Source of the DNA: an uncultured Candidatus Saccharibacteria bacterium
GTDB taxonomy: Bacteria; Patescibacteriota; UBA1384; XYA2-FULL-43-10; 1-14-0-10-43-13
Reading direction: 5' to 3'
Length of the DNA stretch: 64,000 bases
Assembly: GCA_964543385.1 (NCBI GenBank)
Contig: CAZIYE010000002.1
Coordinates: 64,034 to 128,033 of the forward strand
The notes under the pieces were generated by a model. It had not been told where the DNA came from and searched no databases. It worked only from the letters and a program-made list of their open reading frames with translations. Position 1 is the stretch's first letter. Each line of letters starts with the position of its first letter. A program made the position numbers and the translations under genes. This document shows positions 5,487 to 46,142 of this stretch, piece by piece.

Positions 5487-5870
5487 CTAGACAATTTCTC
5501 TGATTTTGTTCACTACATCCTCGGGAGTATTGAGAGATTTTACCATATAACCTTTTGCTCCCAGAGATATTGCCAGCTTTGTATCGCTATCTACGGATTC
5601 GCTGCCAACATTTGTTAGCACGAGTACGGGTATATTTTTTGTTGAATTATCGTCCTTTAGCTTTTTGAGTATTTCGAACCCATTAATATTGGGAAGCAAA
5701 ACGTCTAAAAGAATGATATCGGCACCTTCGCGTGCCCTTTGCATAGCAATTCTTCCATCAGTAACAGTCAGAACGCGGAATCCTTCATTTTTTAATTTTT
5801 CCTTATACATTTCTACTAGAGATTGATCATCTTCAATCAATATCACTGTTTTTTTCTTTGCTTTTTCCAT
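5487..5870 (-). CDS. single-domain response regulator (CheY-like receiver)
   Basis: 127 aa with receiver-domain hallmarks: an acidic pocket (ILIEDD) and a phospho-acceptor Asp (IILLDVLLP). It lies immediately downstream of the sensor kinase on the same strand. Confidence 0.8.
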   Translation of the reverse strand: MEKAKKKTVILIEDDQSLVEMYKEKLKNEGFRVLTVTDGRIAMQRAREGADIILLDVLLPNINGFEILKKLKDDNSTKNIPVLVLTNVGSESVDSDTKLAISLGAKGYMVKSLNTPEDVVNKIREIV

Positions 5871-5887: not shown

Positions 5888-8065
5888 TTATTTTATAAAT
5901 GAGGGCAGAGTTATGTGAAATGTTGTACCTTTATTTTTCTCACTCTCGACCCAAATATCTCCTTGTTGCTTGTTAATTAATTTTTTGGCGATAAATAATC
6001 CCAATCCAGTACCACCTGCCTTGATCGATAATTTATTTGGGATTCTTACAAATCTATCAAATATCGTTTGGATATGTTCTTTTCCAATGCCAACACCCGA
6101 ATCCTTTATAGAAATTATTACTTGGTCATCATTCTTACCGATGGTAATATTAACTTCTCCTTTATCATTCGTATATTTTATGGCATTATCAACAATATTT
6201 TCAATGGCATGCTTTGTTTTAATTTTATCTGCGTAAATAAGAGTAGATTTCTTCTTGGTGAAAATTATATTGATAGACTTTGCTTTGGCCTTTGACCCTA
6301 GATTATCAAGAACTTCTAATATGAGTTTATTCACATCAAAGCTTTGTACATTCAGGGCAACCCTATCTTCTTCTATTCTTAATGTTTCCAATACATCTTC
6401 TACAAGATGGGTCAATCTCTCAGTCGACATATATGCTCTGGTAAAATACTTCTCCTGCATGTTGTTTAATTTTCCAGCGTCACCATGTAGTATCATGCTC
6501 AAATAGCCAGCTATAGAGGTTAAAGGTGTTCTTAGTTCGTGAGCAGTTGTAGTTATAAATTCATTTTTAATTTGTATAAGGTTTTTTTCTTTTGAGATAT
6601 TACGTAAAACAATAATAATATTCTTACTTATATGAGTGTTGGACTGTAAGGAGGAAAAAGATGCATTTAGCCATATTTTTTTACCAAATTTATCTGTCAT
6701 TTCTTCTTCAATAGCCGTATCTTTTGCTTTGTTGACGCTCTTAAAGAAACTATCGATAATAACAGATATTTTTGCAAGCCCTAAGCTATTTAGAAATATA
6801 TCGTGATAGTCTAGAGCGATAGTATCATGAGCTGAAAGATGGGTGATTTCTTCTATGTATCTATTCCAGATAATGATTTTTCCTTCTTCATTTATTACAG
6901 CAACTCCGTCATTAACATTAGTAATTACTTTATCTAGAAGCTCACGCTCAGCTTCTGATTGGCAAAAGAGCCGGCTATTCTCAATTGCAAGACCGATCAT
7001 GCCAGCTAGTATCTGCAAGAATTGAACTTCGGATTCTGAAAATTGCTTAACTCTTTCATAACTAACTGATAAAACCCCTATTAATTTCTCATTTGGCATA
7101 ATCGGTATGCAGACAATGCTACCTTCCTTGTCTTTCCCTAGATATGCTTTACTTTTTTTCGTGTCTTCTACAATAATTGTCTGCTTCTTTTCGGCGCAAA
7201 GTCCGGCGATGCCCTGACCATTTTTAAAACTCTTGAAATTTTTTGGTACTGATTCTCCATCAGATCTTTTAATCGCTTTGATTATGATCTCTGAAGAGGA
7301 ATTATTTATTAGCCCAATACTTGCAGTATTTGAATTAAAGGCTGCTAATGTTTCATTCACGGCTGAATTTAAAATGGTATCCAAATTTCTAACCTTGAAT
7401 AAAGCTTTTGATAAGTGATATATTAAATCACTTTTCTTATCAAGGAGATAGGAAGGACTAATAGTTTTTGTAATCAAATTATTTTCTGAAACAAGATTTA
7501 CTTTTGTTTGTTTTTTGCCTTTTATAACTACATTTTCGATCAAGTATCTAACAGGAACTGTTAAATTAAGATTAAGGGCTTCTCTCGGTGTAAACCAATT
7601 ATAACCATCACTTTCTGAGCTAAGAAAAACCTCGACATCCTTTGGCATCTCGAAGCTAAATAAATACCATTCATGGATATCAACACCATAACGACAACGG
7701 TCACCTTTGATCTCCCCCTTATAAATAAGCTCTACTTCTGGGATGATTATGCCTGTCTCTTCGAGTATTTCTCTGCCCAAACTTTCGATAGGGGTTTCTC
7801 CCTCTTCAAGATGACCACCTGGCGTTGCCCAGCAATATGGATACATCCGTCTTTTTATAAGTAGAATTTTTCCATTATGCCAAATAATAGCTCCTGCCCC
7901 TGCATGCTTTATTCCTTCTGGGGTGTTCAACTCTACTACTGGTCTCGAAGTATTATTAGCTCTTTGGGAGATAGTCATACAAGAATGACAGTAGTAATAA
8001 TGCCTACCTTTTTTGTTAACTTCTGTAATTTGTTCGCTCTCACATTTTGGGCAATAAAATTTCAT
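5888..8065 (-). CDS. multidomain sensor histidine kinase: Zn-ribbon + Nudix hydrolase + GAF + PAS + HisKA + HATPase_c
   Basis: 725 aa. N-terminal CPKC...CHSC zinc ribbon. Nudix box GGHLEEGETPIESLGREILEETGI. A GAF-like region and a PAS-like region. H-box HELRTPLTSIAGY. G-boxes DSGVGIG and GGTGLGLFIAKKL. Confidence 0.8.
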   Translation of the reverse strand: MKFYCPKCESEQITEVNKKGRHYYYCHSCMTISQRANNTSRPVVELNTPEGIKHAGAGAIIWHNGKILLIKRRMYPYCWATPGGHLEEGETPIESLGREILEETGIIIPEVELIYKGEIKGDRCRYGVDIHEWYLFSFEMPKDVEVFLSSESDGYNWFTPREALNLNLTVPVRYLIENVVIKGKKQTKVNLVSENNLITKTISPSYLLDKKSDLIYHLSKALFKVRNLDTILNSAVNETLAAFNSNTASIGLINNSSSEIIIKAIKRSDGESVPKNFKSFKNGQGIAGLCAEKKQTIIVEDTKKSKAYLGKDKEGSIVCIPIMPNEKLIGVLSVSYERVKQFSESEVQFLQILAGMIGLAIENSRLFCQSEAERELLDKVITNVNDGVAVINEEGKIIIWNRYIEEITHLSAHDTIALDYHDIFLNSLGLAKISVIIDSFFKSVNKAKDTAIEEEMTDKFGKKIWLNASFSSLQSNTHISKNIIIVLRNISKEKNLIQIKNEFITTTAHELRTPLTSIAGYLSMILHGDAGKLNNMQEKYFTRAYMSTERLTHLVEDVLETLRIEEDRVALNVQSFDVNKLILEVLDNLGSKAKAKSINIIFTKKKSTLIYADKIKTKHAIENIVDNAIKYTNDKGEVNITIGKNDDQVIISIKDSGVGIGKEHIQTIFDRFVRIPNKLSIKAGGTGLGLFIAKKLINKQQGDIWVESEKNKGTTFHITLPSFIK

Positions 8066-29900: not shown

Positions 29901-29974
29901 TGGCTCGGGGACATGGATTCGAACCATGATTCACGGCTTCAAAGGCCGCTGTCCTGCCATTAGACGATCCCCGA
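29901..29974 (-). tRNA. tRNA-Gln (anticodon UUG)
   Basis: Read on the minus strand: TCGGGGA TC GTCT AATGGCA GGAC A GCGGC CTTTGAA GCCGT GAAT CATGG TTCGAAT CCATG TCCCCGA G CCA. Cloverleaf is complete: 7-bp acceptor stem, GTTCGAAT T-loop, anticodon TTG, encoded CCA. Confidence 0.85.
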
Positions 29975-30595: not shown

Positions 30596-30985
30596 AAAAC
30601 ACCCCGACAAAAGTCGAGGTGTTACCCCACTGGTTGCCCAGTGAAAGGGCCATATTGTGGGGATAGACTAAAAGTAGATTATAAGCCGGGTTCTGTCAAG
30701 GATGACAATCTATCTAAGCATGGAGACCTTGCATATCCTTCGAGCAGAAGTTGATATGATCGGTCCACTCCACTTGCACCAAACGAGGCTTGCCACGGAC
30801 GCATGTTGCCATACGAACGCGTGAGCTCTTACCTCACGATTTCAACCTTACCGGTTGTAAACAACTTAGGCGGTATATTTTCTGTTGCGCTATTCTCGAA
30901 CCTCACGGCCCGCTCATTTTCACGAGCGTTTTGCTCTATGGTGCCCGGACTTTCCTCCCCGCGTATGTGGGGCTGTCATCACATC
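30596..30985 (-). ncRNA. rnpB: RNase P RNA, bacterial type A
   Basis: Minus strand carries GGGGAGGAAAGTCCGGGCACC (CR-I), GTGAGGTAAGAGCTCAC, TAGAT, and ACAGAACCCGGCTTAT (CR-V, exact match to the consensus). A 3' terminator hairpin (ACCTCGACTTTTGTCGGGGTG + TTTT) follows. GC-rich against the AT-rich genome, as expected for a structural RNA. End coordinates are approximate. Confidence 0.85.
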
Positions 30986-31086
30986 CACTTTTAGCATAAT
31001 AATTATAAATAAAAATGCTATTTTTGTCAACAGATTTGAGCTAGATGCATGATTTGGATATAATGATAGAAATAAATGGAGAAAAA

Positions 31087-33088: not shown

Positions 33089-33325
33089 TTACTTCTCTGA
33101 CTTTTTTCCTTCGTCTATCAGCTCTTTTACTCTCTGTCCACCCTTATGGCCGATTTCCTGATAGAAGTTTGGACCATATTTATCGCTTGTGGCCTGTCCA
33201 CCTTTTTGTCCACCCTTATGGCCGATTTCCTGATAGAATTCTCTGCCATGAGTTTGACTGGTTTTGCTCCCGCCCTTGCGTCCTGCCTCTTGGACTGTCA
33301 TGCCACTATTTTTTTTCATTGCCAT
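33089..33325 (-). CDS. KGG-repeat stress-induced protein
   Basis: 78 aa with repeated (E/Q)FYQEIGHKGGQ units and an ...EGKKSEK tail. Confidence 0.6.
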   Translation of the reverse strand: MAMKKNSGMTVQEAGRKGGSKTSQTHGREFYQEIGHKGGQKGGQATSDKYGPNFYQEIGHKGGQRVKELIDEGKKSEK

Positions 33326-33581: not shown

Positions 33582-33812
33582 CTATTTCTCGCTTTCCTTG
33601 CCTTCATTGATTAATTCGCGGACCCTTTGTCCTCCTTTGTGGCCGATCTGCTCATAAAACTCGGGGCCATGTTCACGGCTAGTGGTTTCTCCTCCTTTGC
33701 GTCCAATCTGTTGGTAAAAATTATGATCGTGTGTTTCTTTGGTGCGCTCTCCACCTTTCCGTCCTGCATCCTGCACGGACATTTGGCCTTTTTGATTTTG
33801 CATCTCTTTCAC
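33582..33812 (-). CDS. KGG-repeat stress-induced protein
   Basis: 76 aa: MKEMQNQKGQMSVQDAGRKGGERTKETHDHNFYQQIGRKGGETTSREHGPEFYEQIGHKGGQRVRELINEGKESEK. Confidence 0.6.
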   Translation of the reverse strand: MKEMQNQKGQMSVQDAGRKGGERTKETHDHNFYQQIGRKGGETTSREHGPEFYEQIGHKGGQRVRELINEGKESEK

Positions 33813-35511: not shown

Positions 35512-35979
35512 TTAACTAGTTCCTATTTTGGACAAAAGCCAGTTTCTTGAATCTTCTAGAATTTGTCTAGTTTCCTTGTAGGTGATCTTTTCAAGTGCAT
35601 TCTCATATGTTAGCCATTTGGCATCAGTAATTTCTTTCCCATCAATTTTGATCTCAAGGTTCTCGCAAAAACAAGGGAAAAATTTGACAGTTTTATCTAC
35701 CATTGTGCCGTGGTCATTCCAGCTATATTTTTCTATGAAATAAGTATCGGTAATTATCTTGAGAGGTCTTATCCCGGTCTCTTCGTAAAGTTCTCTTTCT
35801 GCTGTTTCAATTTCTGTTTCGCCAACCTCGGGATGTCCCTTTGGAAAGCTCCAAAATTGTCCATATTGTTCTATCAACAAAAAATAGATAGTACTTGGAT
35901 CTTTATATTTTTGAAATATTGGCACAACGCCGTAAGAGAAATCCTTCATATTAGTGGAGGACCTCGCCTTCGCCGTCAT
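35512..35979 (-). CDS. Nudix hydrolase
   Basis: Nudix box GHPEVGETEIETAERELYEETGI. Overlaps the upstream histidine kinase gene by 29 nt on the same strand. Confidence 0.8.
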   Translation of the reverse strand: MTAKARSSTNMKDFSYGVVPIFQKYKDPSTIYFLLIEQYGQFWSFPKGHPEVGETEIETAERELYEETGIRPLKIITDTYFIEKYSWNDHGTMVDKTVKFFPCFCENLEIKIDGKEITDAKWLTYENALEKITYKETRQILEDSRNWLLSKIGTS

Positions 35980-37600
35980 GGGCGTCGTAAGGCTTTTTAC
36001 TTAGAATTGGCATCGAGAAAAAGAAGGTTGTGCCTTTGTCAGCGCCATCGGAGTGAAACCAAATTTTACCTTTTTGCAATTCAACAAATTTCTTAGATAT
36101 ATACATGCCAAGTCCGGTGCCCTTGACTTCGTCTTTAAGCACATCTACCTGAGTGAATTTCTCAAAGACTGCCTGCTGGCGATCTTTTGGTATTCCCTTG
36201 CCATTATCCTCAACCGATATAACGATTTTTTGATCATCGTTCATAACTCTGACGACTATTTTGCCGCCATCGGGAGTGTATTTTATCGAGTTTCCGATGA
36301 CATTAATAAGTACTTCAGTAATACGAGTAACGTCAAACCAAGTAGGTGGCATTTTGTGCTTAGGCTCTTCGAAAGTCAGTGTATGTTTGGCTTCTCGTGC
36401 CTTCGACATCACTTCAGTGATTGCTTGACTTATAACATCCTCGACAGGCTTTTGTTCCCAGATGATATGGATTCGTCCAGACTCAATCCTGGAGACATTT
36501 AGGAGGTCTTTTACCATATTTGCAAGCCTTGTAGCGGATTGAAATACGCTATCGAGGTAAGTGCGAGCTTTATCAGGGATCTTGCCACCAAGACCCTCGA
36601 TCAAAATCATAGAAAGGTAACCCTTGATCGCAGCGATAGGGGTATTGAGTTCATGCGATGCCATGGACAAAAAGTCATCTTTCAATTTATCCACTTCCTT
36701 TAGATGATCATTGGCAGTCTCAAGATCTTTGGCAAGTTTTTGAATTTGTTCTCGACGTTTTATTTCCTGCTTGACAGACTTAATAAGTAAATATCCACCA
36801 ATGGAAACCAAACAAAAGATTGTTGCATTGATCAAAAATTGGTTAAACGTTTTCGATAATATAGTTTGAGTTCCTATGGCAATAATTACGATTATAGCAC
36901 TGGCTTCTGTTAAAATTACTTTTATATCAAAAAGTCCCTTTGCTACCATTGCATAGGTTGTGAATCCAACAAATGGTAGAACGAAATATGTGCCGAGGTA
37001 TACAAAATTATCGAGCTTAAATACCAAAACGAGTATGAGATTAAAGAATATCATTAAAAAGAACATTGATGAAACTCCAGTAAAGATAAATTTTATTTGT
37101 TCTCTTATAAAACCTTCGGCCTTTAGAAATTTTTTTATTAATAAATAAAATCCTGTTCCTATAGAACCAACTGCAGTAACTAGAAACAGTAACATGCCAG
37201 GGCCAACTTTTGGGCTTCTAGTATTGTTCACGGCATCGATTTCAACTCCAGGGAAGAATATAGGGGACATCACAACCGCAATAGTTGCAACAACTACGAT
37301 GGAATAAATAAAATAAAATTTACGTTTAAATGGCAGTTTTCCCTCTGGGAAAGCTTGAGCAAATAGAAAGAAAAAAACGGACTGAAGTACAGCGAAAACC
37401 ATTACTAATCGCATGAGAATTAAAATAGTATTATAATCTTGGGCAAGCACAGAAAAATAATTTGAAACAGACCATAAAACTAGTGAAAGGGTCAAGTAAA
37501 AAAATAAAGTTCTTAGGGTTTTGTTTTTGGACTTTGTTAATGCAATTATGCCCAGGACTAGATTTAGGGCTGCACCCAGAATAAGTATCAGCGCGTTCAT
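35951..37600 (-). CDS. membrane sensor histidine kinase (polytopic N-terminal sensor + HisKA + HATPase_c)
   Basis: 549 aa with about 8 N-terminal TM helices, a coiled-coil linker, H-box SHELNTPIAAIKGY and G-boxes DNGKGIP and GTGLGMYISKKF. Confidence 0.8.
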   Translation of the reverse strand: MNALILILGAALNLVLGIIALTKSKNKTLRTLFFYLTLSLVLWSVSNYFSVLAQDYNTILILMRLVMVFAVLQSVFFFLFAQAFPEGKLPFKRKFYFIYSIVVVATIAVVMSPIFFPGVEIDAVNNTRSPKVGPGMLLFLVTAVGSIGTGFYLLIKKFLKAEGFIREQIKFIFTGVSSMFFLMIFFNLILVLVFKLDNFVYLGTYFVLPFVGFTTYAMVAKGLFDIKVILTEASAIIVIIAIGTQTILSKTFNQFLINATIFCLVSIGGYLLIKSVKQEIKRREQIQKLAKDLETANDHLKEVDKLKDDFLSMASHELNTPIAAIKGYLSMILIEGLGGKIPDKARTYLDSVFQSATRLANMVKDLLNVSRIESGRIHIIWEQKPVEDVISQAITEVMSKAREAKHTLTFEEPKHKMPPTWFDVTRITEVLINVIGNSIKYTPDGGKIVVRVMNDDQKIVISVEDNGKGIPKDRQQAVFEKFTQVDVLKDEVKGTGLGMYISKKFVELQKGKIWFHSDGADKGTTFFFSMPILSKKPYDAHDGEGEVLH

Positions 37601-37627
37601 TTCCCTCCTATGATTAGCAATCAGATA

Positions 37628-38746
37628 TTATTTTAATTTACTCAAAAATTCTTTGGTATGATCAGCTCTTTTCTTTACGGAATCGTCTGAATAATAGTTT
37701 GGTATTAAAGCGCCATCTATAGAAACATGTAATCTTCCGTCCATAATAGGATTGTTCATGGCTATATTTCTAATAATATATGAGCCTACTGATCCTGCTA
37801 ACATTGATGCTGTAGATAGCTGGGGCCATGTCTTTATTGTTTTGCCCACCTCGAGTAATGAGTCTTGCATACGGCTGACGGCGTTTTGGGGTTGAACAAT
37901 TTTTAGAGATAGAGTTACGCGGTCCTGCGGCGATAGTTTGCCATGACTATTTTTGATAAGTTTGATGTCTTCTTCTGATATTAAGCCGTGGAAAGGTTTC
38001 AAGCTAGATTTCAAGTCATATCTTTCTATGTCAACCATAACATTATCACCATTATCGGTAATCATTATTAAAGGTATTTTTTTATCTTTAGCTATTAGGC
38101 GCATATGAAGCTTCAGATGCAGGCTGTCTATCTCGTCAAAAACTATATCAGAATCTTTTACAAATTCATCAATATTGTCTTCACTTATACCATCAGAGAA
38201 AATTTGAACATTTATATACGGATTTATCTCATAAATTCTTCTTGCTAGAGCGATGGTTTTCTTTATATTAACGGATAGTAGCTCTGTTACAATTCGATTC
38301 ATATTCGATGTGGAAATTGAATCACCATCAGCAATCTTAATGTTTTTGCATCCGCCTTGCATAACAGTAGCTAATACAATATTACTGCCAACGCTTAGGC
38401 CGGCAACTGCAAGATTTGTATTCCGATATTTATCTTGTTCGGCGTGGTTTATTAAATATTTGTTGCGCGATGTTAGAAGAGTATAAAAGTCATTCTCTTC
38501 TAATGCCCTTATGACTGTTTTTCTCCATGGATAGACCACCAATGTCCCCAAGGTCTCTTGTTTAAACTCTGACAATGTCAATTGTAGGTCAGCTTCTTTG
38601 CCTATACATGTCAGTTCAACCAATTCTTCAGCTTGGCACTCAAATATGTCGCTATAAACATATCCTTCGGAATTGAGTTTCAGCAAAATACTATCAAGCT
38701 CTTCTTTTGAGAAAAAATTAATTATATCTGGTTTAAATTGATCCAT
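37628..38746 (-). CDS. ThiF/MoeB/E1-like adenylyltransferase family protein
   Basis: 372 aa with an E1 Rossmann core (NLAVAGLSVGSNIVLATVMQGG...IADGDSISTSNMNRI, cf. the E1 D.D....NL.RQ motif). Flanked by N- and C-terminal extensions. Confidence 0.6.
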   Translation of the reverse strand: MDQFKPDIINFFSKEELDSILLKLNSEGYVYSDIFECQAEELVELTCIGKEADLQLTLSEFKQETLGTLVVYPWRKTVIRALEENDFYTLLTSRNKYLINHAEQDKYRNTNLAVAGLSVGSNIVLATVMQGGCKNIKIADGDSISTSNMNRIVTELLSVNIKKTIALARRIYEINPYINVQIFSDGISEDNIDEFVKDSDIVFDEIDSLHLKLHMRLIAKDKKIPLIMITDNGDNVMVDIERYDLKSSLKPFHGLISEEDIKLIKNSHGKLSPQDRVTLSLKIVQPQNAVSRMQDSLLEVGKTIKTWPQLSTASMLAGSVGSYIIRNIAMNNPIMDGRLHVSIDGALIPNYYSDDSVKKRADHTKEFLSKLK

Positions 38747-40305
38747 TGCTGTTTACTCCCTCTATCGTTACTAATTGATCCATAAGGCATGAATACAACT
38801 CTAGGCTTAGCCTTTTCTTGGCCAATTTTTTCAACAAGAGTTTTGTATTCATAGTTGTTCTTTAGAAGATTCGAATAAATCTTTTCTCCAACATTTTTTT
38901 TTAATTCATCATTTGGTTCGATATTCTTATTCAATTCAACGGCTATTTCAATATATTGATTTCTTAAATCATCATACTTCGTGGTCATCGACATTCTAGT
39001 TGTCAATTTATCTATAATAGCTTGATCTTCAAGCCCTTTTCTAACTGTCTGCGGATAGATATTCAAGCCGTAGAGAGTAATCGTTTGGTCTGATTTCCCG
39101 TAGAGGACAATGAAAGGTAATTTCCATATGGGAAGATTTAGTTTCTTGGCCTCTTCTAAAATATCTATACCTTCATTTTTAAATAAATTAATCATTTCAT
39201 GGAAGCTATAGATAGTTCCATAATCGTGGAGGTTATAATCTAAAAGTGGCATTCCACCGACAGTAGAGCAAATTAATTCATTGTCTACGCATTCAAAGTG
39301 TTTTAAATGTGGATGATATTGAACAAAAGTAGAAACCGTTCTGCCATTGAAGAGTTTTTCAAGCAGCTTATCATTTTTGGCACATAGTCTTTTTATCATG
39401 ATGCTAATAGGGGTCTCATGTCCAAGAATTGCTGCGTCAGCTGATCCATATGTATTCACGCTAGAATTGTAGTAGTCTTTAATCTTTGCTTTCTTGTACA
39501 AATATTCGCGCCAATCTTCACTTATTGCCTCTGCGCCAAAGATGAATTTAAGGTTATACGAACCCCAGTCAAATCCCCTGGAAATACCTTCTTCAATTGT
39601 ATCCTTTACAAAAGGAGGATATCCGCAGATCACTATTTGCTCATAGTTGTTTCCTATTTCGCTAATAATTCTTAAAATGCTGTCCATGGAAATACCTGGA
39701 GTTATGACGGAAAGATCATACCCTCTCTGTGCTATTCTTAGGCAGGAATTTAGCGTAAATACACCGGCAACATACATACCCATTGAATAGGCATCGACTA
39801 TTAATGTTCTTTTCTTGTCTATGTGAAAAAAATCCTTCAAGATCATCTCATAAATAATCGTTGTTTCTAGCTCCAAGTAATTGCCTCTAGGCCAAAAATA
39901 CGGTTTTCCGCTTGAACCAGAACTGACAGAAACCATCTTAATGGAGTCCATATAATTGCCGGGAAGTAGTTCTGAAATAGGATATTCGTGCAGGTAATTT
40001 TTTTTGTCTATAAAACGGTTCGATTTGTTTGCTGAAAATTGCTTATAGGCGGGGACACTATTTTTTATTTCGGCCTCAAGCTCTGAGTATATTTCTTTCG
40101 AATATTTCTCGATCTCTTTAGGGTCAGTATTTTTTAGATAATTTAAAGAAAAATCAACGTCATAAATTTTAAGAGCCTCAAAAAAAGGATTGCTTGAATT
40201 GTTAATCTGTCCAATTGCTTGGTCTTTAAAATATGGTTTTAATGTTGTATAGTTATTAAAGATACTTTTCATGATTCTAATATAGCATATTAAATTATGA
40301 GCCAC
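38722..40305 (-). CDS. PaaK/F390-synthetase-like adenylate-forming enzyme (ANL superfamily)
   Basis: 527 aa. AMP-binding P-loop SVSSGSSGKPYFWPRG matches the PaaK/CapK/LuxE-type motif SSGTTGKP. Overlaps the E1-like gene by 25 nt. True start may be MKSIF (40272), since the track start overlaps the divergent gene. Confidence 0.6.
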   Translation of the reverse strand: MAHNLICYIRIMKSIFNNYTTLKPYFKDQAIGQINNSSNPFFEALKIYDVDFSLNYLKNTDPKEIEKYSKEIYSELEAEIKNSVPAYKQFSANKSNRFIDKKNYLHEYPISELLPGNYMDSIKMVSVSSGSSGKPYFWPRGNYLELETTIIYEMILKDFFHIDKKRTLIVDAYSMGMYVAGVFTLNSCLRIAQRGYDLSVITPGISMDSILRIISEIGNNYEQIVICGYPPFVKDTIEEGISRGFDWGSYNLKFIFGAEAISEDWREYLYKKAKIKDYYNSSVNTYGSADAAILGHETPISIMIKRLCAKNDKLLEKLFNGRTVSTFVQYHPHLKHFECVDNELICSTVGGMPLLDYNLHDYGTIYSFHEMINLFKNEGIDILEEAKKLNLPIWKLPFIVLYGKSDQTITLYGLNIYPQTVRKGLEDQAIIDKLTTRMSMTTKYDDLRNQYIEIAVELNKNIEPNDELKKNVGEKIYSNLLKNNYEYKTLVEKIGQEKAKPRVVFMPYGSISNDRGSKQQWINLNQI

Positions 40306-41421
40306 AATAATAAAGAGGCAGCGCTTGTCCTGGGGGGACTAGGCTTAATAGGTGGGTCACTAGCCCAAGAACTTACAAAGAATTTTGACGTGTTTGTTGT
40401 GGACAGAAGAGAGCCTAAGGAAAAAAATGGAAGTGTGAAATATTATGTATCCGATGCGCTAAGTGTCTCAAGCCTTGAGAAGTTAATAATTGAACATGAG
40501 CCAAGACTAATCGTTAATTCAATAAATATAGCCACTATTTTTTCAGATAACCCTGAGGCAAACTATAAAAAGCTTGTTAAGTTTTACTATAGTTTGTATC
40601 AGATATTTAGTAAGATCTCACATCCGATACATTTCATTCAGATGGGGACAACTGGTTCTGGTGGACTAGGCTTTGATATTCCTTTTACTCATGGGGACAG
40701 AATAGAAGATCTCCCGATCATAAACAAGGCTGCTTTTGCCGGTGTTTCGACGGCAATGCTGACCCTTATGTCCAGGTCTTTTGGCCATAGAGTAAAAGTG
40801 TCGGAAATTAAACCAGGCTTGTCAATTTTTCGAAAAGATATTGTTAAAGAAAAATTTGATGGCAGTAACCTTATCCTTATAGATGGTGGTGAAAGTGGTT
40901 TTTATACATACAATGAACTAGCGCTCCTCACATGTTATATGGGTTTTACAACAGTAGACACGATCATTGATAAAGTTATGAAAATTATTGGTGGCGATAA
41001 AAGCTTCCATAATCACTGTGTTTATGACACGATAGGCAGTCTCAATGGTGCTATTATTACGCAAAATCACCTAGACCATTGGCGTTTGGTTAAATATCTT
41101 AATATTATGAAAAGACTGTCTGGCAAAGACTATATAATAGCTACGGGCAAACTTGGCCCTCCAAGCATCACAAGAGACTTAATTCTTACATACCTAAAAA
41201 AGGAAAATCCTGATGTCGACGAGGAATCTTTTGCTAAGAAAATCAAGGGTGATGCAAATATAGTCAATACAATAAAATTCATCAAGAAGAATGATAAAAC
41301 TCTTTATGAATATCTATTAACTGAATTGAATTACGAAAACTATCTCAAAGCTATATATACTAAAGATGAGCCGTGGGAAAACGTTAAAGCTATGTTGGCT
41401 AGACAGAAACTGATAGTATAG
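40297..41421 (+). CDS. NAD(P)-binding Rossmann-fold oxidoreductase-like protein
   Basis: N-terminal GxxGxxG (LVLGGLGLIGGSLAQEL). Transcribed divergently from the PaaK-like gene. Confidence 0.4.
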   Translation: MSHNNKEAALVLGGLGLIGGSLAQELTKNFDVFVVDRREPKEKNGSVKYYVSDALSVSSLEKLIIEHEPRLIVNSINIATIFSDNPEANYKKLVKFYYSLYQIFSKISHPIHFIQMGTTGSGGLGFDIPFTHGDRIEDLPIINKAAFAGVSTAMLTLMSRSFGHRVKVSEIKPGLSIFRKDIVKEKFDGSNLILIDGGESGFYTYNELALLTCYMGFTTVDTIIDKVMKIIGGDKSFHNHCVYDTIGSLNGAIITQNHLDHWRLVKYLNIMKRLSGKDYIIATGKLGPPSITRDLILTYLKKENPDVDEESFAKKIKGDANIVNTIKFIKKNDKTLYEYLLTELNYENYLKAIYTKDEPWENVKAMLARQKLIV

Positions 41422-41856
41422 ACTAATCCACAGTTTTTCTTTTGACAATCTATGTGATCGCAGCTAAACTATATCAGTTCGCCATACTCTTATAGTTTAT
41501 AGCGGACCTAGCTAATCATGGTCGTGCATTTATCTTGCTAGAAAGTGATGTGGCAACATCACAATAATCAATCAATCCTCAAGGACTGATTTTTATTTTG
41601 GGCAGATTCCGGCTGCTCTTGCCAATCCAACCGTCTGGTTGTGTATTCCGGCAGAACATCACTGACTATTTTATTGCACGTATTAGTCAACTAGATGTTA
41701 GCACTTTTCTATCCCTCCTGATCCACCCTGTTTGTAAAAAATGTGCAGATGGATCAGGATAGCGGTTTGTTCACTGTATAACCGCTGATAACAAATCAGC
41801 GTGTTGACAAAAAATCACACGCTGATTTTTGTTTGATGTTTATGTATAATTTACTT

Positions 41857-42432
41857 ATGAAAATTTTATCCAAAGAAAAATCTCGGGAGATATTAATCAA
41901 ATTATTATCACTTTTCCAATGCGATCAGTTTGAGAAGATGGATAAATATCTCAATTCAAAGCCATTCAGATTCTTCAAATTCTATGCAAGCAATTCTTGC
42001 GAGCTCCCATTTTTATTTTGGGATGAAAAAGAAGCCAAGAAGATATTTGATTCCGCGATTAGTATTAGTGGTGCGGTAAAGGATAGTGATGGTGGTGTAT
42101 ACGGTATTGGTAATTATGATTATTTAGATAAATTAGCAAACTTTTTGAAAACACAGGGCTTTGTAAATATATACGGCGCTGGTAATTGGGATCCCTTCGG
42201 CAATGTTGGTCACAGTGCCATTGGCCTAAATGTTAATGAAATTAGGGGTATTAGCAGACATAACTACGATGACATCTATTTCTTTGATGAAAATTTTACC
42301 TGGATGCTCGCATTTAATCATCATAGAAACGGATTTTTTGCCGGATCAAAAGAAATGATAGAAGATTTTTCATATTCAGTGCCCGAATTTCGCAAATACC
42401 TCAGAGAAGAATGCTCCTGCTGCGGGCTTTGA
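41857..42432 (+). CDS. hypothetical protein with C-terminal CSCCGL tail (gene A)
   Basis: The track ORF starts at TTG 41833; the first ATG is at 41857 (MKILSKEK). No known domain. Its last roughly 25 codons recur twice downstream (43251..43340 and about 46170..46218). Confidence 0.45.
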   Translation: MKILSKEKSREILIKLLSLFQCDQFEKMDKYLNSKPFRFFKFYASNSCELPFLFWDEKEAKKIFDSAISISGAVKDSDGGVYGIGNYDYLDKLANFLKTQGFVNIYGAGNWDPFGNVGHSAIGLNVNEIRGISRHNYDDIYFFDENFTWMLAFNHHRNGFFAGSKEMIEDFSYSVPEFRKYLREECSCCGL

Positions 42433-42854: not shown

Positions 42855-43196
42855 CTAAGTGCTGTGGGGGGTCTTGATATTAGTTCTTTTAAAGCTGCCG
42901 CGGACAAGTTTAAAAGCCAAGCGTCCGTCCTTGTGCTGCATCGGTGTACCGATTAATTCTCCGCAATCACAAGTTAGATTTTTCAGGGTTGATTCGTCAT
43001 GTTCATTGGAACTATTAAAACTATCGGATATTATCCGGTTTATATAACAACGTTTGAGCCAACCAGGACCATCTTTCTGGTATAAAAATATCTTTTTTCC
43101 ACATTTAGCGCACCTGACGCGGGTAATCTTAGCAGTGCCGCCTCTGGCAGCCAGATATTTATCTCTTTTGATTTTGAATTGGTGTGACTGTTCCAT
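42855..43196 (-). CDS. zinc-ribbon hypothetical protein
   Basis: 113 aa with CxxC...CxC cysteine pairs (RCAKCGKK...CDCGE). GC-rich. Confidence 0.4.
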   Translation of the reverse strand: MEQSHQFKIKRDKYLAARGGTAKITRVRCAKCGKKIFLYQKDGPGWLKRCYINRIISDSFNSSNEHDESTLKNLTCDCGELIGTPMQHKDGRLAFKLVRGSFKRTNIKTPHST

Positions 43197-43250: not shown

Positions 43251-43340
43251 ATGAGAGAGCAAGATGATTCAAAATTCTCATATTCAGTGCCTGAATATCG
43301 CAAATACCTCAAAGAAGAATGCTCCTGTTGTGGGCTTTAA
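43251..43340 (+). pseudogene. 29-codon fragment duplicating the 3' end of gene A (…FSYSVPEYRKYLKEECSCCGL)
   Basis: MREQDDSKFSYSVPEYRKYLKEECSCCGL is about 85-90% nt identity to the last roughly 75 bp of 41857..42432. Confidence 0.5.
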
Positions 43341-43518: not shown

Positions 43519-44919
43519 ATGAATGCCAATAATCAAAGAGTTGCTATAGCTGGACTTGGACCTCATGCCAAACGTATCTATATTAGGGTTCTCGCAAATT
43601 ATGAAATTCAACCAAAATTAGTAATAGATATACAGTCTTCTGAGGAAAGTGTTAGGAAATTTCTAAGAGAGCATAAAATCAAATGTGATCTATATTTTGT
43701 ACCGGATAAAAACAAAGATCTTAGGCGTCTTTCCGGAGAAGACAAGAAAAATATTGCACGTCTCCTCAAAAAAAATAAAATCAATAAAGCAATAATATCT
43801 ACAGAACCAAAATCTCATGTCGCATATGCGGAATTTTTTTTGAAACAGAAGTTGCCAGTTCTAATGGATAAGCCAGTTACGGCCATAAAAAATGCATGTT
43901 TCGATGATCGCCTTGCCCAGCAAATCTATAAAGAATATAAGCATCTGAGAGATATGTCTATTCAAAATGATGTTCCTCTAGTAATCCAATCTCAGAGGAG
44001 ATATCACGGTGGATATATCTTTATCAGGGAATTACTTAAAGATACCATATTAAAATATGGTATTCCGGTTACGCATATGGATATTTATCATTGTGATGGT
44101 CAATGGAATATGCCAATAGAATACATTACTAGGGATAATCATCCTTTTAATTATGGGTATGGTAAGGTTTTACATAGTGGCTATCATTTTGTTGATTTCA
44201 TGAGTTGGATAGTAGCTCTTAACAATTTATTACCAGACAAAAAGCCGGATTGTTTCGATGCTATTCACAAGACAGTTAAACCTCAAGATCAACTCTTTCA
44301 ACTTAATGAAAGCTATGAAAAACTTTTTGAAAAAGAGTTACCAGGATTGCCAGAGAAAGATTTTTCCAAAATGGGTGAACTAGATTCTTACTCATTTATG
44401 CAATTCAAAAGAGAGGGCAAAGTAGTCACTTCTGTAAATCTGAATATGTTGCACAGTGGATTTTCTCGACGGGCTAGTTCTGAATTGGCCAAGGATGTTT
44501 ATAAAGGTAATGGCAGGGTAAGGCATGAGAGAATAAATATCCAGATTGGTCCGATACTCAATATACAAGTTCATAGTTATCAATCTTATGAAATCAAAGA
44601 TAGCAGTTATTCAAAGAAAGAGATTGAACCTGGCGGTTTAGACCACTTCGATATTTATATATTCAGGAATTCTGGTATTATCGGTGGCAAGTCGTTCGAA
44701 AAAATTCAGGTCTCCAACCGGAGCCGTATCAATAGGAGAACGCACATGGGCCATAATGAGGAAGCCAGGGAAAGGTGCACAAAAGATTGGTTACAAGGAA
44801 ATGAGAGTGAGAATGATGTGTTAAAACACAAGCTCACTAATTTAGTTATGTCTACCCTATATCGCTGTTCTGCCAAGGAAAATTTAGGCAGATTCCCATA
44901 TATGGAAGTTAAACTGTAG
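43519..44919 (+). CDS. Gfo/Idh/MocA-family oxidoreductase (with extended C-terminal region)
   Basis: N-terminal Rossmann region VAIAGLGPHAKRIYIRVL...ISTEPKSHVAYAEFFLKQKLPVLMDKP carries the EKP-type motif. Confidence 0.6.
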   Translation: MNANNQRVAIAGLGPHAKRIYIRVLANYEIQPKLVIDIQSSEESVRKFLREHKIKCDLYFVPDKNKDLRRLSGEDKKNIARLLKKNKINKAIISTEPKSHVAYAEFFLKQKLPVLMDKPVTAIKNACFDDRLAQQIYKEYKHLRDMSIQNDVPLVIQSQRRYHGGYIFIRELLKDTILKYGIPVTHMDIYHCDGQWNMPIEYITRDNHPFNYGYGKVLHSGYHFVDFMSWIVALNNLLPDKKPDCFDAIHKTVKPQDQLFQLNESYEKLFEKELPGLPEKDFSKMGELDSYSFMQFKREGKVVTSVNLNMLHSGFSRRASSELAKDVYKGNGRVRHERINIQIGPILNIQVHSYQSYEIKDSSYSKKEIEPGGLDHFDIYIFRNSGIIGGKSFEKIQVSNRSRINRRTHMGHNEEARERCTKDWLQGNESENDVLKHKLTNLVMSTLYRCSAKENLGRFPYMEVKL

Positions 44920-45713: not shown

Positions 45714-46142
45714 ATGAGGCACAGTTTTGATTCAGTGAATGTCAGTACAATAATTTTTAATAGAAAAGGACAGGTTCTTTTGGGAAAAAGAAGTATGGAC
45801 GAGGATGTATATCCCGGACTTTGGTGTGTGCCTGGAGGCAAGATAGATGTGGAAGCCTGTGAAGGTGAAATTATCGAGAACAATTTAAAAAGAGAGGTGA
45901 AGGAAGAGATAGGGATAGAGATAGAACCTCTCTTTTATCTTGCTAGCAATTGTCTTATAAAAGGAGACGAGGCAAAATTATATCTGATGTTTGTATCAGA
46001 GCATGTTGCCGGTGAGCCATTTGCACTTGACGGTACCGAAGAAGTTAAATGGTTTGAAATCGATGAACTAACACCAGAAATGCTAACGCCTAAAACCTAT
46101 GACAATATTCAAAAAGCGAGTGACAAAAGAATATCTCTCTAA
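45714..46142 (+). CDS. Nudix hydrolase
   Basis: Nudix box GGKIDVEACEGEIIENNLKREVKEEIGI. Confidence 0.75.
   Translation: MRHSFDSVNVSTIIFNRKGQVLLGKRSMDEDVYPGLWCVPGGKIDVEACEGEIIENNLKREVKEEIGIEIEPLFYLASNCLIKGDEAKLYLMFVSEHVAGEPFALDGTEEVKWFEIDELTPEMLTPKTYDNIQKASDKRISL

Follow-up and report, generated by a model that had tools for sequence, protein, structure and literature searches.

A ligase, ThiF protein and 7TM sensor kinase cassette of Patescibacteria and its possible oxazolone-type product

A 64,000-nucleotide stretch of DNA from an uncultured Candidatus Saccharibacteria bacterium (contig CAZIYE010000002.1, positions 64,034 to 128,033; in the following, the window) carries a gene cluster for a PaaK-fold adenylate-forming ligase, a ThiF-like protein and a histidine kinase with an N-terminal seven-transmembrane (7TM) receptor domain. 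From the identity and conservation of these genes and the relationship of the ThiF protein to the oxazolone cyclase TrzS we propose, with a probability of roughly 0.55, that a module conserved across Patescibacteria (CPR, for candidate phyla radiation) makes an oxazolone-type molecule derived from an N-acyl amino acid and is tied to the 7TM sensor kinase. Four genes follow each other on the minus strand: the ligase of the ANL superfamily (38722..40272, 516 aa), the ThiF-like ATP-dependent cyclase of Rv1355c/TrzS type, a stand-alone ThiF half (37628..38746, 372 aa), the membrane sensor histidine kinase (35951..37600, 549 aa) and a Nudix hydrolase (35512..35979, 155 aa). An NAD(P)-dependent oxidoreductase of the short-chain dehydrogenase/reductase (SDR) superfamily, a conserved accessory gene, is transcribed divergently on the plus strand (40297..41421). 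This layout of four co-directional genes and one divergent open reading frame (ORF) had been described in an earlier sequence-only reading of the window and was found as described, as were both motifs quoted there (SSGSSGKPYFWPRG and GDSISTSNMNRI) in the translations. Direct reading of the sequence also confirmed the three junctions given there: ligase and ThiF genes overlap by 25 nt (a Shine-Dalgarno-like GGGAG is located 8 nt ahead of the ATG of ThiF), ThiF and kinase genes are separated by a 27-nt gap that contains AGGAGG as the kinase's own ribosome-binding site, and the start of the Nudix gene overlaps the end of the kinase gene by 29 nt.

Conservation of the core genes

A metagenome scan with the ligase alignment led to 80 loci, look-ups of individual homologues added more, and a contig search with the single protein returned one locus, L006, from a Candidatus Saccharibacteria metagenome-assembled genome (89% identity). 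The ORFs of 86 loci, 76 of them non-redundant, were called and labelled by phmmer and all-against-all clustering. Near the ligase, a ThiF gene was detected in 68 of the 86 loci and a 7TM histidine kinase in 58, followed by a flavoprotein of approximately 350 aa (35 loci), a response regulator (17), a ScyB-like tryptophan dehydrogenase (13), a HisC-like aminotransferase (13) and an SDR-type reductase (12). Where both flanks extend for at least 5 kb (21 non-redundant loci), ThiF was found in all 21, the kinase in 20 of them and the flavoprotein in 11; ligase, ThiF and 7TM kinase are the almost invariable core. The gene order varies (oxidase-ThiF-ligase-kinase, ligase-ThiF-oxidase-kinase, ThiF-dehydrogenase-ligase-kinase and others), which argues for a functional and not an accidental linkage, and the kinase is found directly downstream of the ligase even where ThiF sits elsewhere. 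Fused proteins were also observed, namely ScyB-like-ligase-ThiF (1242 aa), ThiF-ligase, ligase-ThiF and ScyB-like-ligase. In five further loci, the gene directly upstream of the ligase encodes an aromatic amino-acid ammonia-lyase, and methyltransferases are present in several loci. As the arrangement recurs in dozens of independent metagenome loci, it is far beyond chance.

The sequence-only reading had regarded ligase and E1-like enzyme as a functional pair to which the sensor kinase is hard-wired, and had called for a comparison of gene neighbourhoods. Orthologues turned out to be syntenic in related loci, so that the pairing is borne out by the synteny and the fusions and the link to the kinase by the 20 of 21 loci with full flanks; an uncharacterised small-molecule activation system with a two-component link is a fair description of the cluster. 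All homologues with an organism name came from Patescibacteria/CPR, except for one ThiF protein labelled gammaproteobacterial; taxonomic labels are sparse, and the breadth rests on the source names of homologues together with the metagenome loci. Recurrent outer neighbours are housekeeping genes (DnaJ, IF-3, AspRS, TsaD/TsaB), which places the cassette in the core genome and not on an island.

The ThiF protein

The ThiF protein matches PF00899 (E=6.5e-22). Its best match by far was NCBIfam NF005901, the 'Rv1355c family' (E=3.1e-82, 277 bits), with residues 33-351 aligned to positions 40-341 of the 722 positions of the model; the next best ThiF-family models, including PRK08223, reached at most 70 bits (E~1e-19) and thus fell about 200 bits under the TrzS-type model. 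The closest solved sequences were 9egc (E=6e-13), TcdA and PaaA (5ff5, E=6e-5). An alignment of 32 sequences showed R94, N95, G116-L-S-V-G120, D140, D142, N148, N150, R151, K163 and D207 to be invariant, and the residues for nucleotide binding and adenylation are intact, in agreement with the E1-like identity assigned to this gene before; an Asp of the adenylation motif is essential in TrzS (PMC12856293). By its family-model score, the protein is best placed with the ThiF domain of the Rv1355c/TrzS oxazolone cyclases. TrzS and the N-acyltransferase TrzA convert tryptophan to N-acyl tryptazolones, whereby the ThiF domain of TrzS catalyses the ATP-dependent cyclisation of an N-acyl amino acid to the oxazolone and the oxidase then desaturates it (PMC12856293). 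The same chemistry has been described for TyzACB of Mycobacterium tuberculosis (PMC10404671) and OxzAB of Pseudoalteromonas (bioRxiv 10.1101/2020.06.11.147165; reviewed in PMC12596934), and ATP-dependent cyclisation of N-acyl aromatic amino acids to oxazolones has been shown by experiment for TrzS, TyzB and OxzB (PMC12856293, PMC10404671, bioRxiv 10.1101/2020.06.11.147165).

A ThiF fold with intact adenylation motifs next to a ligase superficially resembles the clusters for pyridine-2,6-dithiocarboxylic acid (PDTC) and thioquinolobactin as well, and the sequence-only reading had drawn this analogy to a thiocarboxylate, sulfur-carrier or protein-tag system. On this view, E1-like enzyme and AMP-ligase would lead to a thiocarboxylate or to the activation of a sulfur-carrier or ubiquitin-like protein. 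No invariant or near-invariant Cys, CxxC, rhodanese or extra domain was found in the 32-sequence ThiF alignment, and the catalytic Cys that had been suggested as a check is therefore not a family trait. When small ORFs (30-160 aa) within ~5 kb of 87 cores were screened for a C-terminal GG and for conserved families, only 19 of the 4793 ORFs of 30-130 aa ended in GG and the recurrent ones ran antisense inside the ligase gene; near the cores of the 76 loci there was no ThiS/MoaD/ubiquitin-like partner and no conserved small-ORF family, only antisense artefacts and TsaB fragments. The earlier remark that no ThiS/MoaD-like partner is visible thus holds among small ORFs near the cores, and the search for a GG-ending beta-grasp protein proposed with it gave none. 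Sulfur-transfer genes are missing among the conserved neighbours and the ThiF/MoeB models score about 200 bits under the TrzS-type model, so that the analogy did not survive and a carrier-protein or thiocarboxylate system is highly improbable.

As PaaA is a detectable relative of the ThiF protein and a radical-SAM/SPASM gene occurs in two loci, we also considered a system for peptides that are made on the ribosome and modified after translation, in which ThiF (like MccB or PaaA) and the ligase would modify a ribosomal precursor peptide. However, the 76 loci have no short ORF that is conserved beside the core, neither a protease nor an exporter was found, and the neighbours are amino-acid deaminating enzymes instead of peptide-maturation genes, which makes a peptide system extremely improbable.

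The ligase

The ligase as a single sequence matched no Pfam or NCBIfam family at E<=0.01. A profile of 29 homologues matched the PaaK structures 2y4o and 4r1l with E~1e-11 (2y4o E=8e-12), and structure prediction, as had been proposed for this protein, gave an AlphaFold2 model with a predicted local distance difference test score (pLDDT) of 88.8, for which Foldseek found BT_0428, PaaK1 and PaaK2 (4r1m, 2y27 and 2y4o) as best matches (E~1e-19 to 1e-20; target-normalised template modelling score 0.59-0.64). Identity to solved structures was 10-16%. Further relatives were the 2-hydroxyisobutyryl-CoA ligase HCL, the benzoxazole enzyme ClxA and the amide synthetase McbA, and with ClxA and McbA the structural relatives include enzymes that form amides or esters free of coenzyme A (CoA). 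The residues S128-S129-G130-S131-G133 (SSGSxG loop), Y286-G287-A289-D290 (YGxAD), D361 and K518 were invariant in the 29 sequences and are in our own reading the ANL P-loop, the (Y/F)GxxE/D motif, the hinge Asp and the C-terminal Lys. Fold matches and invariant ANL core residues together point to an adenylating enzyme of PaaK fold that is very divergent in sequence yet competent for catalysis, and the PaaK-like identity suggested for the first gene of the cluster stands. About 1000 clusters of 50% identity match at E<=1e-30 among 1.84 billion representatives, which defines a large family of ligases that is unannotated and without a match to a Pfam model.

The ligase could also be an ordinary CoA ligase for an aryl acid such as phenylacetate, indoleacetate or cinnamate, with the kinase as its regulator and ThiF as a separate function, e.g. 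a TcdA-like dehydratase for the cyclic form of threonylcarbamoyladenosine in tRNA. The top structural matches are true CoA ligases, TsaD/TsaB genes are found near a few loci, and the source annotations (JGI) read 'phenylacetate-CoA ligase' and 'tRNA A37 threonylcarbamoyladenosine dehydratase'. Against this, ligase and ThiF are translationally coupled in the window and fused in other organisms, and no part in tRNA modification falls to the Acg-type oxidase or the enzymes that deaminate amino acids, while TsaD/TsaB look, like DnaJ, IF-3 and AspRS, like conserved housekeeping surroundings. The ligase is outside the PaaK equivalog and outside a paa catabolic context; its neighbours are ThiF, kinase and amino-acid deaminating enzymes, with neither paa nor beta-oxidation genes among them. 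An aryl-acid CoA ligase with an unrelated ThiF neighbour is thus very unlikely, and the public annotations 'phenylacetate-CoA ligase' and 'tRNA threonylcarbamoyladenosine dehydratase' are corrected here as misleading. Two specific assignments were rejected. TcdA as the identity of the ThiF protein disagreed with the score of its model NF011696 (57.6 bits vs a cut-off of 304, and vs 277 bits for the TrzS-type model) as well as with the gene context. A capsule (CapK) or exopolysaccharide ligase, the case named in the sequence-only reading as speaking against its proposal, disagreed with the recurrent neighbours of the 76 loci, which contain neither glycosyltransferase nor exopolysaccharide families.

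The flavin oxidase and the proposed pathway

In 35 loci, ThiF is accompanied by a flavoprotein with similarity to the Acg family (E=1e-56) and to the C-terminal half of the Rv1355c model (E=7e-16), and these matches indicate that ThiF and flavoprotein of the CPR loci are a split TrzS; Acg is also the closest structure to the TrzS oxidase (PMC12856293). A search of the 64-kb window with 36 oxidase queries detected no flavin oxidase of the nitroreductase superfamily (E<1e-3). The nearest relatives (L007, L008 and L010) likewise lack it, and the next outgroup L002 (48% identity) has one. All characterised or predicted ThiF-oxazolone clusters start with an N-acyl amino acid synthase, whereas the CPR loci have none and always the ligase instead. 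Accordingly, neither an acyltransferase nor a carrier protein was found among the conserved neighbour families of the related loci, in which the PaaK-fold ligase is the constant partner.

The variable accessory enzymes all remove the alpha-amino group of aromatic amino acids: ScyB-like dehydrogenase and aminotransferase would lead to arylpyruvates, the ammonia-lyase to aryl-acrylates, and the SDR reductase could give aryl-lactates. We therefore suggest that the acyl donor is a carboxylic acid derived from an aromatic amino acid, provided in other loci by ScyB-like dehydrogenase, HisC-like aminotransferase or ammonia-lyase and probably shaped at this locus by the divergent reductase, for which we propose a role in supplying or tuning the donor as a reductase of keto acids (or related compounds). 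The sequence-only reading had counted this oxidoreductase as part of the system, and the recurrence of SDR reductases in the 12 loci mentioned above agrees with it. The PaaK-fold ligase would adenylate the aryl acid and join it to an amino acid, thereby replacing the N-acyl amino acid synthase. The TrzS-type ThiF would then adenylate the carboxylate of the N-acyl amino acid, and attack by the amide oxygen would close the 5(4H)-oxazolone ring, whose substituent would be desaturated by the Acg-type flavin oxidase in about half of the related loci. As there is no oxidase within the 64 kb, the window would yield an oxazolone that is saturated and more reactive, or a compound derived from it. In nearly every case the next gene is that of the 7TM kinase, which might sense the product or a precursor, as a synthase-receptor pair similar to luxM/luxN and cqsA/cqsS.

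Saturated 5(4H)-oxazolones are activated acyl donors. Because such a product is expected here, appreciable weight has to be given to a different outcome of the two carboxylate activations, in which the adenylate or azlactone is captured by an amine or alcohol and an open-chain amide (pseudo-dipeptide) or an acyl-aminoacyl transfer results. This would apply especially to loci without oxidase, which make up about half of the complete loci and include the window, L007, L008 and L010. Oxazolones are readily opened by water and alcohols and hydrolyse in acid (PMC12856293), ThiF/nitroreductase clusters of Stieleria and relatives lead to open-chain dehydro-N-acyl tyrosines with no oxazolone observed (PMC12479983), and an alpha/beta-hydrolase lies between core and kinase in L028 and L074. 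Nevertheless, a gene for supply of an acceptor or for a transferase is not conserved with the core, and the biochemically characterised members of the ThiF clade all cyclise, for which reasons we regard capture as unlikely.

The sensor kinase

The kinase consists of HisKA_7TM (residues 6-226, E=4e-11), HisKA (307-375, PF00512, E=1.9e-16) and HATPase_c (423-532, PF02518, E=4e-26). Receiver-only regulators follow the kinase in 8 of the 21 complete related loci, and relatives at 51-53% identity have one at the position held in the window by the Nudix gene. In four non-redundant loci, genes for a receiver-only regulator, an ATPase fused from receiver and PilB (T2SSE) and PilC (T2SSF) come after that of the kinase; loci with this kinase-regulator-PilB-PilC order are L020 (9833..13051), L021, L028 (15807..19080), L042 (13586..16895) and L053 (11017..14317). 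PilB and PilC are also found a few kb from the cassette in L008 (16263..19630), and there are no pilus genes in the 64-kb window. These observations suggest type IV pilus assembly as the kinase output in some lineages.

Hydrophobic autoinducers are usually perceived by polytopic membrane sensor domains (LuxN, CqsS, AgrC), and in luxM-luxN, cqsA-cqsS and agrBD-agrC the genes for small-molecule synthesis adjoin that of a polytopic-membrane sensor kinase. Similarly, the synthesis genes of the cassette are adjacent to and co-inherited with a membrane kinase; synthases and sensor domains are non-homologous to those of the autoinducer pairs, and ligand sensing in the cassette is proposed by analogy. 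We put forward tentatively, at somewhat less than even odds, that the kinase senses a ligand from the pathway. With the same enzymology, the kinase might instead read an unrelated envelope or host cue and merely regulate the pathway or be co-regulated with it. Adjacency alone cannot name a ligand, many related kinases have an extra cytoplasmic GAF domain as an alternative input, and an output via receiver-only regulators, REC-PilB and PilC need not feed back on the pathway. The near-obligate linkage of the kinase through many permutations of the gene order is, however, typical of synthase-receptor pairs, and we consider an unrelated cue rather unlikely. Literature on ligands of HisKA_7TM, or on these genes in a Saccharibacteria genetics paper, was looked for and nothing was found.

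Two related loci differ in the surroundings of the kinase. In L004 (8001..14485; Patescibacteria), two tandem ligase-ThiF pairs with a methyltransferase between them share one downstream 7TM-GAF kinase and regulator, which suggests product diversification inside one cassette. In L089 (7654..10575), an intein-interrupted gene for the RNA ligase RtcB (Hint/Intein_splicing) lies directly downstream of the cassette kinase.

Comparison with known systems

Among the closest known systems is TrzAS (Rv1356c/Rv1355c) of Mycobacterium tuberculosis, M. smegmatis and Rhodococcus, which has the same cyclase family and an oxidase half that is Acg-like as in related CPR loci. Aromatic amino acids are the implied building blocks in both, and signalling genes adjoin both, namely c-di-GMP genes in M. 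tuberculosis and the histidine kinase in the cassette. The two differ in that ThiF and oxidase are one polypeptide in TrzS, whereas ThiF stands alone in the cassette and an oxidase is absent at the locus; the place of the acyl-CoA-dependent N-acyltransferase TrzA is taken by the PaaK-fold adenylating ligase, the acyl donor is a short fatty acyl-CoA for TrzAS and likely an aryl acid for the cassette, and the host is a mycolic-acid actinobacterium in one case and a CPR bacterium in the other. TyzACB, OxzAB (Pseudoalteromonas rubra; tyrazolone/phenazolone) and the clusters of Stieleria, Thalassotalea and Massilia (N-acyl amino acid synthase, ThiF and nitroreductase, with an optional methyltransferase) share with the pathway proposed here a logic of three steps, i.e. 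formation of an N-acyl aromatic amino acid, ATP-dependent cyclisation by ThiF and flavin-dependent desaturation (PMC10404671; bioRxiv 10.1101/2020.06.11.147165; PMC12479983). TyzB/TyzC and the CPR ThiF/oxidase are alike in being encoded by separate genes, and methyltransferases are optional in both. In clusters of the TyzACB/OxzAB type, the N-acyl amino acid synthase draws on acyl-CoA or acyl carrier protein-bound donors, and neither a PaaK-like ligase nor an obligatory sensor kinase is present. The cassette would thus be a pathway variant with a different first enzyme, a very large new phylogenetic home and an obligatory receptor kinase.

The ligase shares PaaK/ANL fold and motifs with the indolmycin enzyme Ind3, the benzoxazole enzymes ClxA, NatL2 and AjiA1 and, more distantly, with McbA and the plant GH3 amido synthetases. 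On the way to indolmycin, tryptophan is converted by a transaminase and the ketone reductase Ind2 to an indolyl hydroxy acid, and the ATP-dependent Ind3 couples this acid to an amine, giving the oxazolinone (PMC8246080). CPR loci with aminotransferase or dehydrogenase, reductase and ligase resemble this route, a likeness drawn from the description of Ind2 and Ind3; the difference is that ring closure in the cassette is assigned to a separate ThiF enzyme.

Several points weigh against an oxazolone pathway coupled to the kinase. The chemistry is deduced throughout from homology and context, and the locus lacks the flavin oxidase, the defining partner in all characterised oxazolone systems. The NF005901 score of the ThiF protein falls under the curated cut-off of 476 bits, because the model describes a fusion of two domains and only one half of it can be matched. 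With solved enzymes the ligase shares only 13-16% identity, and whether it would release an amide, an ester or a CoA thioester is not readable from its sequence. The divergent reductase has generic SDR-superfamily similarity with no close solved relative, and its label 'beta-methylindole reductase' is a precomputed, unconfirmed Pfam tag. The fusion proteins are automated gene calls on metagenome contigs. No response regulator lies beside the cassette kinase, and the sole one of the 64-kb window (5487..5870) follows a different kinase. Finally, adjacency of the kinase reflects co-inheritance and co-regulation and not the identity of a ligand.

Oxazolone biosynthesis by ThiF and nitroreductase was discovered only between 2020 and 2025 and its role was explicitly left unresolved (PMC12856293; bioRxiv 10.1101/2020.06.11.147165). 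Oxazolones are labile and similar to acyl-homoserine lactones, and, with c-di-GMP genes flanking trzAS, signalling was suspected by their discoverers (PMC12856293; bioRxiv 10.1101/2020.06.11.147165). The cyclase family is now found in genome-reduced, mostly uncultured episymbionts with very little biosynthetic capacity, and no literature that links oxazolones or this gene set to CPR was found. This offers a handle on two questions, the purpose of oxazolones and the use of self-made small molecules by CPR bacteria in sensing each other or their hosts. A more far-reaching proposal, which we regard as doubtful, is a CPR-wide, vertically inherited signalling cassette in which a labile oxazolone-type autoinducer, formed from aromatic amino acids by ligase and ThiF with or without a flavin oxidase, the 7TM kinase and receiver-only regulators control type IV pili in some lineages. 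If this were true, the cassette would govern host attachment or motility of episymbionts via the receiver-PilB ATPases, and a first biological function of oxazolones would be demonstrated.

The divergent spacer, the reductase and the Nudix gene

The sequence-only reading had let the oxidoreductase abut the cluster. The divergent ORF is there, but its overlap with the ligase gene is not: the longest ligase ORF (38722..40305, 527 aa) begins at a GTG at 40305, whereas public gene calls of the identical protein (P0001) begin at the ATG at 40272 and give 516 aa, which leaves a divergent spacer of 24 nt (40273..40296) between the two start codons. On reading its sequence, the perfect AT-rich palindrome TAATATagcATATTA was recognised, and the spacer is identical in L006. 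The 25-nt spacer of L002 (7976..8000) holds a different perfect AT-rich palindrome, AGTATATACT. Neither start codon is preceded by a Shine-Dalgarno site. Palindrome and missing Shine-Dalgarno sites suggest divergent transcripts that are leaderless or nearly so, or an operator shared by both genes, and overlapping -10 elements or a regulator site may be located in the spacer. Promoter and terminator scans gave the same result as shuffled controls.

Beyond the reductase by 2 kb, the window encodes a 466-aa oxidoreductase of the GFO_IDH_MocA type (43519..44919, plus strand). In L067 (102..1562), at a distance of 4 kb upstream from the ligase, a homologue (250 bits) precedes a Nudix gene, and the oxidoreductase gene is possibly another occasional accessory.

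The Nudix gene of the cluster matches PF00293 (E=4.7e-15) with a complete Nudix box, GHPEVGETEIETAERELYEETGI. It had been taken as a hard-wired part of the module, which was not confirmed: it is absent after the kinase in L007, a relative of 71% identity, and a Nudix-box scan of the 76 loci gave 0.087 hits per 10 kb near the core vs 0.097 per 10 kb elsewhere. The gene is therefore a local passenger, co-transcribed here and not a conserved member of the module. A third Nudix gene of the window is located at 45714..46142. A Nudix domain is an unusual input module of a sensor kinase. The minus strand of the window encodes such a fusion kinase at 5888..8065 with the domain order NUDIX(54-172)-GAF-PAS-HisKA-HATPase_c, followed by the receiver-only response regulator (5487..5870), so that, with the kinase/Nudix overlap at 35951..35979, Nudix and kinase are linked twice in one genome. 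Such a link may explain the Nudix gene behind the cassette kinase.

Further features of the window

A GC-richer, ORF-poor stretch at about 30.5-31 kb is due to the gene for RNase P RNA of bacterial class A (30666..30992, minus strand, 186.6 bits), and a tRNA-Gln(TTG) gene is found at 29901..29974 (minus strand). A 199-aa ORF (41833..42432, plus strand) ends in FSYSVPEFRKYLREECSCCGL, and the same C-terminus recurs in a 29-aa ORF (FSYSVPEYRKYLKEECSCCGL; 43251..43340, plus strand) 0.8 kb downstream; between them lies a 113-aa Cys-rich, zinc-ribbon-like ORF (42855..43196, minus strand). The repeated C-terminus has the look of a gene end that was duplicated in the course of an insertion or rearrangement, and its terminal CSCCGL is reminiscent of a lipidation or modification motif. 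Two paralogous proteins of 76-78 aa with GRKGG / GHKGGQ repeats (33089..33325 and 33582..33812, both on the minus strand), the second of which has a copy in L001 with only faint KGG and LEA_5 labels, are likely stress-response proteins.

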